From Escherichia coli (GTDB lineage Bacteria; Pseudomonadota; Gammaproteobacteria; Enterobacterales; Enterobacteriaceae): a stretch of 64,000 nucleotides of DNA. Positions 50,771 through 55,923 of the stretch are shown here, one piece after another. Both the position numbers and the translations under genes were made by a program. The first letter of the stretch is position 1, and every line of letters starts with the position of its first letter. The stretch is from NCBI RefSeq assembly GCF_003334305.1, contig NZ_QOWS01000004.1. One strand, written 5' to 3'. The notes under the pieces were generated by a model, which was given only the letters and a program-made list of their open reading frames with translations, was not told the DNA's origin and ran no database searches.

Positions 50771-51790
50771 TTACCTGAAAGCAACAGTAGCCATAGCTAA
50801 CGTCGTGTCGAGCATTCGGTTAGCAAAGCCCCATTCGTTATCGCACCAGACCAACGTTTTGATCAGGTGTGCGCCACTGACCCGGGTTTGGGTGCCATCG
50901 ACAATGGCACTGTGCGGATCGTGGTTAAAATCTACAGAGACCAACGGCAATTCCGTATAGTCAACTATACCATGAAATGCACCTTGTGCTGCTTTTTGCA
51001 GCAACAGGTTGACTTCATTGGCTTTTACAGGTTTCTTCACCGTCACGCTTAAATCGATTGCCGTCACATTTATGGTTGGCACACGTACCGCAATCGCTTC
51101 AAAGCGATCGTTAAATTGCGGAAAAAATCGTGTGATACCGGCGGCCAGTTTAGTATCGACCGGAATGATCGACTGGCTGGCTGCCCGGGTGCGACGCAGG
51201 TCAGGATGGTATGCATCAATAACCTGTTGATCGTGCATGGCGGAGTGAATTGTGGTCACAGTGCCGGACTCAATACCGTACGCATCATCTAACAATTTGA
51301 TGACGGGAATTATGCAATTCGTGGTACAGGAAGCGTTAGAAACGATGCGGTGTTCCGCACGAAGTTGATCCTGATTGACGCCGTAAACAACGGTCGCGTC
51401 GAGATCGTTACTGCCAGGATGTGAAAAGAGCACTTTTTTGGCCCCGGCGGCAATATGCGCTTCGCCATGCTCGCGGGAGCCATATACGCCGGTGCAGTCG
51501 AGGACTACATCAACGCCAAGTTCACGCCAGGGGAGCGATTGCAGTGAACGTTCATGCAATACGCGGATGGCGTCATCACCAACAAAAAGTTGATCGCGTT
51601 CCTGTCGTACTTCCCATGCAAAACGGCCATGGCTGGTGTCATATTTCAACAAATGCGCCATGCCCGCAGCATCCGCCAGTTCGTTGATTGCCACCACGGT
51701 AATTTCCGCCCGGCGTCCGGATTCATACAAAGCACGAACCACATTACGCCCGATGCGACCGAAGCCATTTATCGCTACGCGTACGGTCAT
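50771..51790 (-). CDS. epd: D-erythrose-4-phosphate dehydrogenase
   Basis: ORF 50771..51874; start [15 protein letters not shown] at 51790 gives 339 aa; GAPDH-family NAD motif NGFGRIGR. Confidence 0.92.
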
Positions 51791-51911
51791 AGATCTCCTG
51801 CAAGGTTTTCCCTGAGCAAATTTGCCAGACAGAGTAATCCAGCAAATCGTCCGGGGAAACCTTACCTGTCGCAAACTGCGACTGATTGGTTAATTGTCGA
51901 ACATTTAATCG

Positions 51912-51927
51912 ACTGAAACGCTTCAGC
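51912..51927. promoter_or_regulatory. Candidate Cra (FruR) operator upstream of epd
   Basis: ACTGAAACGCTTCAGC is a near-perfect palindrome of the Cra half-site TGAAAC, about 120 bp upstream of the epd start. Confidence 0.4.
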
Positions 51928-52017
51928 TAGGATAAGCGAAACGTGGAATAAAAGGAATGATTGTCCAGTCAAAGAAAGCAATTATCTGACTTACGTCACG
52001 TTTTCAGCCCCGCCCCT

Positions 52018-52033
52018 GTGGAATTTATTCCAC
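52018..52033. promoter_or_regulatory. Perfect 16-bp palindrome in the epd / ECF-operon divergent control region
   Basis: GTGGAAT-TT-ATTCCAC; an additional GTGGAATAAAAGGAATG half-site-like repeat lies at 51943-51959. Confidence 0.35.
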
Positions 52034-52161
52034 TTTGCAGAATCACGAATAAGCGTAGCAAAATCTTTTCGTTGTGCCGTCACAAACCCTGACTTATATC
52101 AGAATATGACTGATGCAGCGTCGATATTATCCGCAATACGTCCGAGTTTCGGAGTACTCCA

Positions 52162-52593
52162 ATGATGACATTGCCCTACCCATATTCTTCCTCCGCACGC
52201 TTTTACGCACTGCGCCTCCTCCCCGGGCAGGAAGTTTTTTCCCAGCTACACGCTTTTGCACAGCAGCATCAACTTCATGCCGCCTGGATTGCAGGCTGTA
52301 CCGGTAGCCTGACTGACGTCGCCTTGCGCTATGCCGGGCAAGAAGGCACCACGCTCCTGAACGGTACATTCGAAGTGATCTCACTAAACGGCACGCTGGA
52401 ACAGAGTGGTGAGCATCTTCATCTCTGCGTTTCCGATCCACACGGCACGATGCTTGGCGGTCATATGATGCCCGGCTGTACCGTGCGGACCACGCTTGAA
52501 CTGGTGATCGGTAGCCTTGAGGAACTGGCGTTTAGCCGCCAACCTTGCGCGCTTTCTGGTTACGACGAGTTGCATATTTCCCCCGTTAAATAA
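52162..52593 (+). CDS. Small cytoplasmic protein, tentatively PPC/DUF296-like
   Basis: 143-aa ORF with GGAG RBS 8 nt upstream; no TM segments; pattern LRLxPGxEV...GSL..V.LRYAG....LNGTFEVISLNGTL...HLHL.VSD..G...GGHMMPGCTV.TTLELVI resembles the DUF296 fold. No match to a K-12 protein that I know. Confidence 0.55.
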   Translation: MMTLPYPYSSSARFYALRLLPGQEVFSQLHAFAQQHQLHAAWIAGCTGSLTDVALRYAGQEGTTLLNGTFEVISLNGTLEQSGEHLHLCVSDPHGTMLGGHMMPGCTVRTTLELVIGSLEELAFSRQPCALSGYDELHISPVK

Positions 52594-52615
52594 CTACTTT
52601 CAAAGAGGTTTTCTT

Positions 52616-53194
52616 ATGGCGCGTAGCCACTTTTCCAGTCAGGCACTGGTGTTGATCGTTATATCTATCGCCATCAATATGATCGGCGGGCAACTGGCCA
52701 GCATGGTCAAATTACCTATATTTCTCGACTCCATCGGCACACTTATTAGCGCGGTACTGCTTGGTCCGGTGATCGGAATGCTGACCGGCTTACTGACCAA
52801 TTTACTCTGGGGATTGCTGACCAACCCGATCGCCGCCGCATTTGCACCCGTCGCGATGGTCATCGGCCTGGTCGCCGGTTGCCTGGCGCGAGCGGGTTGG
52901 TTTCGCACCCTGCCAAAAGTCGTTGTCAGCGGCGTGATTATTACGCTTGCGGTAACGGTCGTCGCTGTACCGCTGCGTACTGCGCTGTTCGGCGGTGTCA
53001 CCGGTAGCGGAGCCGATTTGTTCGTTGCCTGGATGCACTCGATGGGGCAAAACCTGGTGGAGTCGGTGGCGATTACGGTGATAGGCGCGAACCTGGTCGA
53101 TAAAATTCTTACAGCGGTGATTGTCTGGCTTTTACTGCGCCAGCTGCCGATTCGCACCACGCGCCATTTTCCGGCAATGGCTGCCGTGCGCTAA
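52616..53194 (+). CDS. ECF transporter substrate-capture (S) component, substrate unknown
   Basis: ORF 52517..53194; start MARSHF at 52616 behind an AAAGAGG RBS gives 192 aa with about six hydrophobic helices; its stop overlaps the next start (TAAATG). Confidence 0.6.
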   Translation: MARSHFSSQALVLIVISIAINMIGGQLASMVKLPIFLDSIGTLISAVLLGPVIGMLTGLLTNLLWGLLTNPIAAAFAPVAMVIGLVAGCLARAGWFRTLPKVVVSGVIITLAVTVVAVPLRTALFGGVTGSGADLFVAWMHSMGQNLVESVAITVIGANLVDKILTAVIVWLLLRQLPIRTTRHFPAMAAVR

Positions 53195-53902
53195 ATGCAT
53201 CCATTTACCTCATTAACACTGTGGGCATTGGCGGCCTGCACCACGCTTATCCTGCCCGCGCAGACCATTTTGCCAATCTATAGCGCGGCGACCTTTTTCT
53301 GCCTTATTGCGCTAAAGGCCACGCGGCGGCGGGCAAAATATGTCGTCTGGCTGATGTTCTCGCTGGGAGCCGGGCTGTGGCTGGTACACGGTGGCTGGCT
53401 ACCAGAATGGCTAAGCGGCACGCCACGCTCGCCAGAACGGTGGTCGCATGCTATTACGCTCTGGTTGCGGATTCTGGCGATTGTTTCAACCTCACAGTTG
53501 TGGATGCAGTACGTCCCCGTGCAATGTTTTATTCGCGCTCTGTTTGCTTCTCGCCTGCCGCCAGGCGTCGCTTATCTGTTTGCCGGGCCGTTATTGGTCG
53601 TTGAGCAGTTAAAACGGCAATTAGCGATTATTCATGAAGCGCAGCGTGCCCGCGGCGTGCCGCTGGATGAGGGCTGGTATCAGCGTTTACGTGCGATGCC
53701 CGCGTTAATTATTCCGCTAACACACAATGCGCTTAACGATCTGGCTGTCCGTGGTGCGGCGCTGGATATGCGGGCATTTCGGATCCACAACCGACGAACA
53801 ACGTTGTGGGCACCAGCCGATAGCACCCTACAACGCGTAGCGCGTTACACCATGATCTTGCTGATGCTGACAGAATTCGGAGCGTGGATATGGTTACGTT
53901 AG
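53195..53902 (+). CDS. ECF transporter transmembrane (T) component, EcfT/CbiQ family
   Basis: 235-aa polytopic protein with two Ala-Arg-Gly coupling-helix motifs (EAQRARGVP, LAVRGAAL). Confidence 0.65.
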   Translation: MHPFTSLTLWALAACTTLILPAQTILPIYSAATFFCLIALKATRRRAKYVVWLMFSLGAGLWLVHGGWLPEWLSGTPRSPERWSHAITLWLRILAIVSTSQLWMQYVPVQCFIRALFASRLPPGVAYLFAGPLLVVEQLKRQLAIIHEAQRARGVPLDEGWYQRLRAMPALIIPLTHNALNDLAVRGAALDMRAFRIHNRRTTLWAPADSTLQRVARYTMILLMLTEFGAWIWLR

Positions 53903-54567
53903 AACAGTTCCGTTATTGCCCGACACACTCAACGCATCCTCCGTTCTGTTATGACTTTCACTATGTCAAACCGGGGATGGTCGCCATCTTTGGTGACAAC
54001 GGCAGTGGCAAAAGTACGCTGGCACAGCTGATGGCGGGCTGGTATCCGGACTTTCTGCCAGGAGAGATAACAGGCACGGGGACGCTCCTCGGTACGCCCA
54101 TTGGGCATCTCCCGCTTAATGAACAATCCGCCACCATCCAGCTCGTCCAGCAATCGCCCTATTTGCAGCTCTCCGGCTGTACCTTTAGCGTGGAAGAAGA
54201 AGTTGCCTTTGGGCCAGAAAATCTGTGTCTTGCTGAAGCAGAGATTTCGGCGCGGATTGATGCCGCCCTGACTCTGACCGAGTGCCAGCCGTTGCGCCAT
54301 CGTCACCCGGCAACACTCTCCGGTGGAGAGACACAGCGCGTGGTCATCGCCTGCGCCATCGCGATGCAGCCAAAGCTCTTAATTCTTGATGAAGCCTTTA
54401 GCCGCCTGACTCCGCAGGCCAGCGAAATGCTGTTGCAGCGCTTACAACACTGGGCGTTTGAACGTGGTTCGCTGATTATTCTTTTTGAACGTCATCGCAC
54501 ACCTTTCCTGAACTACTGCCAGCAAGCGTGGCAATTGAAAAACGGAGCGCTCCAGCCACTATGTTAA
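53884..54567 (+). CDS. ECF transporter ATPase (A) component
   Basis: 227-aa ORF with Walker A GDNGSGKST, signature LSGGETQR and Walker B LLILDEA; its start overlaps the T-component 3' end. Confidence 0.75.
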   Translation: MDMVTLEQFRYCPTHSTHPPFCYDFHYVKPGMVAIFGDNGSGKSTLAQLMAGWYPDFLPGEITGTGTLLGTPIGHLPLNEQSATIQLVQQSPYLQLSGCTFSVEEEVAFGPENLCLAEAEISARIDAALTLTECQPLRHRHPATLSGGETQRVVIACAIAMQPKLLILDEAFSRLTPQASEMLLQRLQHWAFERGSLIILFERHRTPFLNYCQQAWQLKNGALQPLC

Positions 54568-55238
54568 CGTTAAATAAGATATCTTATCGCTGGCCTGGCG
54601 CGGCAACGGATTGTCTTTGCGACATTTCTCTGCAACTCAAACAAGGTGAATGGTTGGCGCTGACCGGCGACAATGGCGCGGGAAAATCGACGCTGTTACG
54701 AGTAATGGCAGGTCTTCTTACGCCCACAGCCGGTACGGTTATGCTGCAACAACAGGCGATGAAAAACCTGAAAAACCGCCAGCGCGCGGCAAAGGTTGGC
54801 GTACTGTTTCAGGAAGCGGAAAACCAACTTTTTCACAGCACCGTCGCTGACGAGATCGCATTTGGTTTGAAACTGCAAAAATGCCCGGCGGATGAAATCA
54901 CTCAACGTACCCATGCTGCCCTGCAATGTTGTCAGTTAGCAGACACTGCCAACGCGCACCCGTTGGATCTGCATAGTGCGCAGCGACGGATGGTCGCCGT
55001 CGCCTGCCTGGAAGCACTCTCTCCGCCACTATTGCTGCTGGACGAGCCGAGTCGGGATTTTGACGAAAATTGGTTGAGCGTGTTTGAAAGCTGGCTGGAG
55101 AAGTGCCGCCAGCGAGGCACGAGCGTCGTAGCAATCAGTCATGACGCCGCATTTACCCGGCGTCATTTCTCTCGTGTGGTGCGACTGGAAGATGGTCTAA
55201 TCAGGAACGTTAATCCACCAGACGATATTCACCCGTAG
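54561..55238 (+). CDS. ECF transporter ATPase (A') component with degenerate signature motif
   Basis: ORF 54528..55238; likely start MLTLNKISYR at 54561 (ATGTTAA overlap with the upstream stop). Walker A GDNGAGKST, Walker B LLLLDEP, H-loop SHD; the signature position reads LHSAQRR instead of LSGGQ. Confidence 0.7.
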   Translation: MLTLNKISYRWPGAATDCLCDISLQLKQGEWLALTGDNGAGKSTLLRVMAGLLTPTAGTVMLQQQAMKNLKNRQRAAKVGVLFQEAENQLFHSTVADEIAFGLKLQKCPADEITQRTHAALQCCQLADTANAHPLDLHSAQRRMVAVACLEALSPPLLLLDEPSRDFDENWLSVFESWLEKCRQRGTSVVAISHDAAFTRRHFSRVVRLEDGLIRNVNPPDDIHP

Positions 55239-55923
55239 CGGTCATCATTAAGGTCAAATTTGCAGGCAGACTCTCTTCCAGCACCCGGCGAACATTCGGC
55301 CCGTCGGTACGGTCATAAAAAGCTTCTGCGTCTGCCAGCGATACCCCTCCCGCCAGCTTGCGCCCTACCAGTCGTTCCCGCAACGCAGTAGCTGGCGCGT
55401 TGATAAAGATCGAGAAATCACAAAATTGCGCAAGCTGGCACCACTTCTCGTCGTCCAGCAACAACCAGTTTCCTTCGACGATGACGAGTGGTGCGGTAAC
55501 GTGCAACGCATCTTCAACAGGATCATGCTTTTGTCGATCATACTGCGGCCACGTACAATCCCCTTCCACGACCTGGCACAGATTTTCCGCCAGTTTCGCA
55601 ACGTCAAATGTCTCTGGTGCGCCTTTGAAGGGGCGCAATTGATGCGCATCCAGCCAGCTATTGTAATGGTGAAAACCATCCATCGGGAGCGTCTGGATAG
55701 CGGGTAATTCAGGGTCTTGTTGCGCGAGATATTCCCAGAAGGTAGTTAAGGTAGATTTACCCGTCCCCGGCGGAGCGCAAAGAAAAACCACCGTACGTCG
55801 CTGCGGACTTACCGTCTGTAAGGCCGCCAGCATACGCAGCAACGGTTTATGCACGCGTTCTATCTCTTCATCATGGTACTGCACTTGCACGTTCAGCCCA
55901 TTCACCGTTAATTCAATTTTCAC
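55210..55923 (-). CDS. yggC: P-loop kinase-like protein YggC
   Basis: 237-aa ORF with Walker A APPGTGKST; its 3' end overlaps the convergent ECF A' gene by 29 bp. Confidence 0.88.
   Translation of the reverse strand: MKIELTVNGLNVQVQYHDEEIERVHKPLLRMLAALQTVSPQRRTVVFLCAPPGTGKSTLTTFWEYLAQQDPELPAIQTLPMDGFHHYNSWLDAHQLRPFKGAPETFDVAKLAENLCQVVEGDCTWPQYDRQKHDPVEDALHVTAPLVIVEGNWLLLDDEKWCQLAQFCDFSIFINAPATALRERLVGRKLAGGVSLADAEAFYDRTDGPNVRRVLEESLPANLTLMMTATGEYRLVD

Follow-up and report, generated by a model that had tools for sequence, protein, structure and literature searches.

Two genes that run into each other tail to tail, with no DNA between them, raise the questions of whether the overlap is real, how it came about and where the two transcripts end. 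In the 64-kb stretch of Escherichia coli DNA analysed here (the window), the plus-strand gene A', the last of an ECF transporter cluster, meets the minus-strand gene yggC in the order pgk-epd-[PPC, S, T, A, A']-yggC-yggD(fumE)-yggF(glpX paralogue)-yggP-cmtA. A first-pass annotation had read this junction as an insertion abutting the end of a pre-existing gene, leaving no room for a terminator and possibly causing antisense interference between the two units. The reading that we favour, and to which we give a somewhat better than even chance, is that the junction is an ancestral, inherited tail-to-tail overlap that has been lost in K-12-type strains, and that termination of the Rho type would take place inside the opposite genes.

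The overlap itself is a plain observation. In the open reading frame listing and in the sequence, the two coding sequences share 29 bp that include both stop codons; A' ends with TAG at 55236-55238 on the plus strand, and yggC with TAA at 55212-55210 on the minus strand. The start of A' is taken from PGAP (54561), the longest open reading frame beginning at 54528. RefSeq/PGAP annotation gives an identical pair and overlap in the 100%-identical E. coli A7, and the 29-bp overlap also in UPEC957C (a canine UPEC), ST131 JJ1886 and O157:H7, whose alleles are 95–97% identical across the junction. In model searches YggC matches NF006742 over residues 1-237 of 237, and ECF/ABC ATPase models match A' up to residue 222-224 of 225. 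Both open reading frames of the pair are real genes, with homology over their full length and orthologues in about seven genera. The possibility of an earlier in-frame stop, or of a shorter A' C-terminus, was also checked, and across 15 orthologous loci from about seven genera no earlier in-frame stop is found in either A' or yggC. We conclude that A' and yggC form a genuine convergent overlapping pair of coding sequences, so that the 29-bp overlap first described from the window alone is borne out by the reading frames, by the stops as read in the sequence and by the annotation of four further genomes. The expectation that each unit is read through into the other is likewise upheld by the geometry, which extends each mRNA at least 26–29 nt into the opposite gene and forces a sense/antisense overlap of at least 29 nt.

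Features of the epd-yggC region, in coordinates of the window
Feature	Position	Strand	Basis
PCC/PPC-domain protein	52162-52593	+	annotation, model search
ECF S component	52616-53194	+	annotation, model search
ECF T component	53195-53902	+	annotation, model search
ATPase A	53890-54567	+	annotation, model search
A', second ABC ATPase (225 aa) of the dedicated ECF transporter cluster	54561-55238	+	ORF, PGAP, homology
yggC, at the end of the cmtBA-yggP-yggF-yggD(fumE)-yggC unit, encoding a 237-aa protein of the nucleoside/nucleotide kinase family	55210-55923	-	ORF, PGAP, homology
Convergent overlap of coding sequences, 29 bp, encoding the A' tail (V)NPPDDIHP and the YggC tail GEYRLVD, each followed by its stop	55210-55238	both	
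Stem-loop inside A' (perfect 9-bp stem, 8-nt loop), candidate protective 3'-end structure of the yggC transcript	55141-55166	-	folding, conservation
Candidate rut region, C-rich and G-poor, that follows the stem-loop directly in yggC-sense RNA	55032-55149	-	C/G profile
C-rich, G-poor stretch past the A' stop in A'-sense RNA, antisense to yggC, candidate Rho-dependent zone	55279-55416	+	C/G 1.6-1.8
3' third of yggC, haplotype-specific in E. coli and linked to the cluster	55210-55455	-	nucleotide identity to K-12 of about 59% here and 93% in the 5' part
Approximate segment in whose place K-12-type E. coli has some 280 bp of unrelated or divergent sequence	52036-55455		alignment, scars

Overlaps of this kind are an ordinary class of feature, not a rare one. 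For the E. coli reference genome 75 convergent overlapping pairs have been reported (PMC4161906), and the A'/yggC pair resembles them in having genes on opposite strands with a 3' overlap of a few tens of bases, in the movement of stop codons that makes or alters the overlap, and in the poorly conserved protein tails that it covers. There is no difference in kind; the pair is missing from K-12, and hence from those catalogues. The tail of A' comes after the last conserved strand of the NBD (…VVRLEDGLIRN) and varies widely between genera. Within the YggC tail the G-x-Y motif is kept also in species without the cluster, and the shared bases are for this reason probably dictated by YggC. The few substitutions that separate Escherichia alleles within the overlap are non-synonymous in three of three cases for A' and in two of three for yggC. 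From these mostly non-synonymous changes, and from the variation of A' between genera, both tails appear to be under weak constraint.

The first gene of the cluster encodes a PCC/DUF296-domain protein (Pfam PF03479, E 8e-29), and the S component lies nearest to the uncharacterised 'CD3073 family' (NF045596, below cut-off), with a weak match to PF12822. Literature searches on yggC with ECF, on the gene neighbourhood and on CD3073/DUF296 found nothing on the cluster, the junction or its substrate. The two ATPases, each of 225 aa, lack the usual C-terminal domain of EcfA, as judged from their translations and from model coverage. In the translation of A, a Glu replaces the H-loop His (…LIILFERH), and in that of A' the signature LSGGQ is replaced by LHSAQ. 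Functional asymmetric ABC dimers have their degenerate motifs grouped in one composite ATP site. Both degenerate motifs of A and A' fall in the same composite site, and the dimer would therefore probably combine one catalytic with one degenerate ATP site.

The cluster has a GC content of 0.53–0.59, like that of the adjacent ygg genes. The annotation holds no mobility gene (integrase) and no tRNA at the cluster, and a search for flanking direct or inverted repeats that might mark an insertion gave short pairs at chance level only. One 14-nt inverted repeat (55032-55045 / 55451-55464, 93% complementary) has its right arm at the boundary of divergence from K-12. It was set aside as an insertion mark, being probably coincidental: A' and YggC encode similar P-loop protein motifs, LLLLDE (Walker B) and LLLDDE respectively, on opposite strands.

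Among complete E. coli genomes the cluster is present in 3318 of 5426 and absent from K-12, a presence/absence ratio of 61% to 39%. The type of yggC 3' end seen in the window occurs in 3320 of the 5426, in strict linkage to the cluster. The genomes that match only the first 481 bases of the query include E. coli PS3Tanimalfeces2 (NZ_CP180597.1), whose annotated features at the match are epd and cmtA. A larger deletion, with both the cluster and yggC-yggP gone, is suggested for genomes of this type.

Beyond E. coli, a scan for YggC in one genome per species gave 67 loci, at which the neighbouring proteins were placed by tblastn. The five genes of the cluster are found at the same site, between epd and yggC, in E. 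albertii, E. whittamii, Silvania, two Superficieibacter, Phytobacter and an Enterobacteriaceae MAG, as well as in at least seven Citrobacter species, C. freundii, C. werkmanii and C. koseri among them. In every one of the 15 cluster-bearing loci examined A' overlaps yggC, by 11–92 bp. The shortest overlap, of 11 bp, is that of Phytobacter and the longest, of 92 bp, that of the MAG; between them come Silvania (26 bp), Escherichia (29), Superficieibacter (41), the C. freundii group (44) and C. koseri (68). The span from the start of yggC to the start of A' is 1350, 1362, 1374 or 1398 bp. Since these spans all differ by multiples of three, the alignments show a fixed scaffold in which the length of the overlap drifts by in-frame insertions and deletions and by shifts of the stop codons. 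The present comparison documents that the A'/yggC overlap is conserved between genera while its length drifts. The 3' end of the window-type yggC diverges at the same pace as the remainder of the gene, tracking the species phylogeny; nucleotide identities of the 5' and 3' parts are 90 and 93% for E. albertii, 86 and 88% for E. whittamii, and about 72 and 70% for Citrobacter.

A different arrangement is seen in Buttiauxella sp. B2, where the PPC and S genes of the cluster (L052:1-884, minus strand; 73–82% amino acid identity) are located upstream of cmtA in divergent orientation, instead of downstream of yggC. Linkage of the cluster to the cmt-ygg operon in two architectures suggests a functional relation or a shared pathway, and its position at the other, divergent end of the operon suggests that the convergent arrangement is not essential to that link. 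One 4.5-kb contig binned in a Citrobacter MAG (L004) carries an Escherichia-type yggC/ECF junction, with 93–97% amino acid identity to the window, and the same MAG holds a second yggC locus (L019) that is of Citrobacter type and cluster-less; the contig is probably mis-binned Escherichia DNA.

Comparison with the K-12 epd-yggC junction had been proposed as the way to locate the boundary of an insertion, and it reverses the polarity of the event. The alignment shows near identity from epd to about 51960-52035, and high identity resumes at about 55455, some 245 bp inside yggC, so that divergence begins within the gene and not at its end. Over the 5' two-thirds of yggC the K-12 and window alleles are 93% identical, whereas over the last 240 nt they share about 59% of nucleotides and 64% of amino acids, both proteins having 237 residues. 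The K-12-type 3' end has 56–64% identity to all alleles except that of one E. coli-like species representative, and among the 67 loci no donor closer than 67% in amino acids was found, bar one E. coli-like species representative at 87%. The K-12 3' third (L002:1876-2120) comprises the last 79 codons and has about 59% nucleotide and 64% amino acid identity to the other Enterobacteriaceae alleles sampled. Codons 11-30 of K-12 yggC form a second divergent patch, of smaller size. On its pattern of identities K-12 yggC is a mosaic gene, and the comparison shows the K-12 state to be a derived one, a deletion and replacement that introduced some 280 bp of DNA, either foreign or highly diverged. As placed by the alignment, one crossover of this replacement falls within the conserved central part of yggC, and the second is upstream of epd.

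Remnants of the cluster are found in two Escherichia species that lack it, MOD1-EC7003 and E1V33 (loci L003 and L007), yet have the window-type yggC. At both scars the last 210–250 bp or so of A' are joined to the first 24–90 bp of the PPC gene, with window positions 55209-54990/55000 and 52185/52249-51600 retained. The deletion junctions differ, which indicates that the two deletions were independent. In E1V33 the deletion left an intact in-frame reading frame of 98 aa (L007:6686-6982, minus strand), made of the first 22 codons of PPC and the last 76 of A', and this fusion still overlaps yggC by 29 bp. Two scars are too few to establish selection for retention of the A' 3' end.

The presence of the cluster in several genera, the scars, the boundary inside yggC, the phylogeny of the yggC 3' end and the lack of island hallmarks together show, as judged by comparison of genomes, that the cluster and its overlap with yggC are ancestral; they predate the divergence of Escherichia, Citrobacter and related genera and have been inherited vertically, and the polymorphism within E. 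coli reflects loss of the cluster, not gain. The first-pass interpretation, in which a horizontally acquired island landed against the end of yggC and the overlap is accidental, draws some support from the absence of the cluster from K-12 and from about 39% of complete E. coli genomes, and from its form as a compact 3.1-kb unit. It is contradicted by the comparisons made here, and we consider it very improbable. The cluster is not absent from the site in sister species and outgroups (E. albertii, E. whittamii, Citrobacter, Silvania, Superficieibacter, Phytobacter), its position and overlap being common to about seven genera; cluster-less Escherichia species carry deletion scars; the boundary of the empty site is not at the end of yggC, and it is the K-12 3' end that is the phylogenetic outlier; and integrase, tRNA, flanking repeats and deviant GC are all lacking. 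A recent transfer of an E. coli-type block to the outgroups fits poorly with identities of 70–90% that track species divergence. The cluster is like E. coli genomic islands and strain-specific insertions in its presence/absence polymorphism. It differs from them in being ancestral in the genus and repeatedly lost, and in having no mobility genes or attachment repeats and a typical GC content; one of its boundaries, moreover, falls within a conserved gene, a sign of homologous replacement. Marginally less probable still is an artefact of annotation, or a decaying A' whose true end lies earlier or which belongs to an array of pseudogenes. A and A' are indeed short, without the C-terminal domain of a typical EcfA, and the signature motif of A' is degenerate; but the first in-frame stop of A' comes only at 55236, with the ABC models aligning almost to it, the five cluster reading frames are intact in thousands of genomes (95–100% identity) and in other genera, and the degenerate H-loop of A and signature of A' belong to one composite ATP site. 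The main value of the analysis is in this correction, namely that the ECF cluster between epd and yggC is ancestral in Escherichia, that K-12 has deleted and partly replaced it, and that an island insertion is therefore the wrong reading of the locus. The results leave current understanding unchallenged.

With no intergenic DNA between the two units, the termination signals of each are probably embedded in the opposing gene. The view that the junction leaves no room for a terminator is right as regards intergenic space, of which there is none, and too strict as regards the opposite coding sequence, which holds candidate termination signals in the form of a conserved stem-loop and a C-rich tract. 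A consensus scan of 51500-56500 for canonical intrinsic terminators gave no hit in the 400 nt or so around either stop. Windows of 90–146 nt across the overlap itself were not more structured than shuffled sequences (z +0.5 to +1.8), and a scan of 54700-55700 against Rfam at permissive thresholds gave no match. The sole structural signal is a hairpin further inside A', conserved and lacking a U-run, accompanied by the C-rich tract.

This stem-loop is situated 43 nt past the yggC stop in yggC-sense RNA and 72 nt before the A' stop. Its predicted stability is -17.7 to -18.2 kcal/mol (z = -4.7 against shuffles). Counting this one, the window has about 11 perfect hairpins of the kind, where about two are expected by shuffling. 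In the yggC sense no U-run follows it, the next sequence being GACUGAUUGCUAC; on the plus strand it is followed by the U-rich tail UUUCUCUC. The tract beyond it in yggC-sense RNA (55149-55032) has a C/G ratio of 1.6–2.2, in the 95th to 99th percentile of the window. A'-sense RNA has no notable hairpin in its own C-rich stretch downstream of the A' stop (about 55279-55416). C-richness is a general property of antisense RNA of E. coli genes.

The stem-loop and the tract next to it have the sequence features of a Rho-dependent 3' end, being a stable structure downstream of the stop codon that is followed by C-rich, G-poor RNA without a U-run. Rho-dependent mRNA 3' ends in E. coli have been described as a stable stem-loop with no U-tract and with a rut site immediately downstream (Dar & Sorek 2018, PMC6061677), and the candidate resembles these in the stability of its hairpin (-17.7 kcal/mol), the missing U-run, the tract of C>G on its 3' side, its position downstream of the stop and its location in untranslated RNA. 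It differs in that the whole candidate module lies opposite a protein-coding gene, on its antisense strand.

Conservation of the stem-loop can be followed across 18 loci, where 88.9% of cells are paired and three pairs are changed on both sides. One of these compensatory changes, between Escherichia and Citrobacter, exchanges C-G for U-A (CCG/CGG to CUG/CAG) at the cost of an R to Q substitution in A'. Wobble (G·U) cells that pair in one sense only number 23 for yggC-sense RNA and 5 for A'-sense RNA, counts that are not phylogenetically independent and correspond to about 6–7 events; the stem-loop pairs better in yggC-sense RNA. At the MOD1 scar, where the A' remnant is frameshifted, the stems are conserved at 18 of 18 positions, the spacer at 24 of 43 and the loop at 5 of 8. 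The stem-loop is weak or absent in Superficieibacter and Phytobacter. Part of its conservation may simply be inherited among close relatives (Escherichia, Citrobacter) or may be related to coding, the peptide HDAAFTxRH being conserved, and the open in-frame fusion formed by the A' remnant of E1V33 may impose a coding constraint on the stem-loop there.

If the tail-to-tail overlap is served by termination of the Rho type, the yggC unit would be ended by Rho acting on untranslated antisense RNA at the C-rich tract past the stem-loop, and exonucleases would then trim the mRNA back to the hairpin, which would protect it. The ECF unit would be ended by Rho on C-rich RNA antisense to yggC, at about 55280-55416. 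A bolder version of this proposal, which we put forward only tentatively, is that the last 100–220 bp of A' also provide the cmtBA-yggPFDC operon with its 3' UTR and with a module for Rho-dependent termination, that the stem-loop is selected for its antisense role and has been kept after deletion destroyed the gene around it, and that the overlap couples expression of the uncharacterised ECF transporter to that of a sugar-type PTS/ygg operon. Were this so, the transporter would be coupled to an operon that it joins in two gene orders. The proposal predicts concretely where the mRNA of the yggC operon ends, and the locus would illustrate how tightly packed convergent units place termination signals in each other's coding sequences.

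The alternatives to be weighed here concern the stem-loop and the overlap separately. The stem-loop may have no role at an RNA 3' end. It could instead result from the codons chosen for the HDA...RRH peptide, be a palindrome that a regulator binds on DNA, or act as an intrinsic attenuator in the A' sense. Its location in a conserved peptide, its perfect palindromic form on DNA, the U-rich tail on the plus strand and its absence from Phytobacter and Superficieibacter all suit such explanations, which deserve to be taken seriously while remaining on the less likely side. Superficieibacter, however, retains the HDA…RRH peptide without the hairpin, and from this it follows that the peptide does not force the stem-loop. 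The 23:5 asymmetry of wobble cells favours yggC-sense RNA, the double change CCG/CGG to CUG/CAG includes a non-synonymous one, R to Q, and the MOD1 remnant, though frameshifted, has kept both stems intact; as for an attenuator, termination 72 nt ahead of the A' stop would leave the A' mRNA truncated.

The excludon concept is reportedly that of Sesto et al. 2013. Interference of this type between the two units, as raised by the first-pass annotation, is plausible, and it is possible that they are subject to transcriptional interference or to processing of double-stranded RNA; with the hairpin as the 3' end of the yggC unit, complementary transcripts would overlap by about 100 nt when both units are active. 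A stronger statement is that the overlap is itself a selected convergent excludon, in which collision of RNA polymerases or cleavage of duplexes by RNase III makes expression of the ECF transporter and of the PTS/ygg operon mutually exclusive. The retention of the overlap in 15 of 15 loci favours this, as does the second architecture in Buttiauxella sp. B2 in so far as it suggests that the units are functionally related. Convergent excludons are also common in E. coli, with 165 in MG1655, most of them having terminators embedded in the neighbour (PMC12288877). We nevertheless regard selection for an excludon as unlikely, because neither the length nor the sequence of the overlap is conserved, the cluster of Buttiauxella sp. 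B2 at the divergent end does without convergent geometry, and frequent loss of the cluster leaves yggC intact. Compared with the convergent excludons of the ExcludonFinder map of E. coli (PMC12288877), the locus is alike in that its transcripts must overlap and its termination signals would lie inside the neighbour. Those excludons are defined by observed overlap of transcripts and reciprocal expression, whereas the arrangement described here is read from DNA, and here the coding sequences themselves overlap, not only the UTRs.

The stem-loop was also considered as a bidirectional intrinsic terminator, and rejected, its U-rich tail being on the plus strand only and the hairpin lying ahead of the A' stop. 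Terminators of that kind have reportedly been described between convergent genes by Ju, Li and Liu in 2019 (Nat Microbiol). The likeness is in the single palindromic hairpin between the functional cores of two convergent genes; the differences are that the hairpin in the window is not intergenic, and that its U-rich tail is found in the A' sense, where termination would truncate A'.
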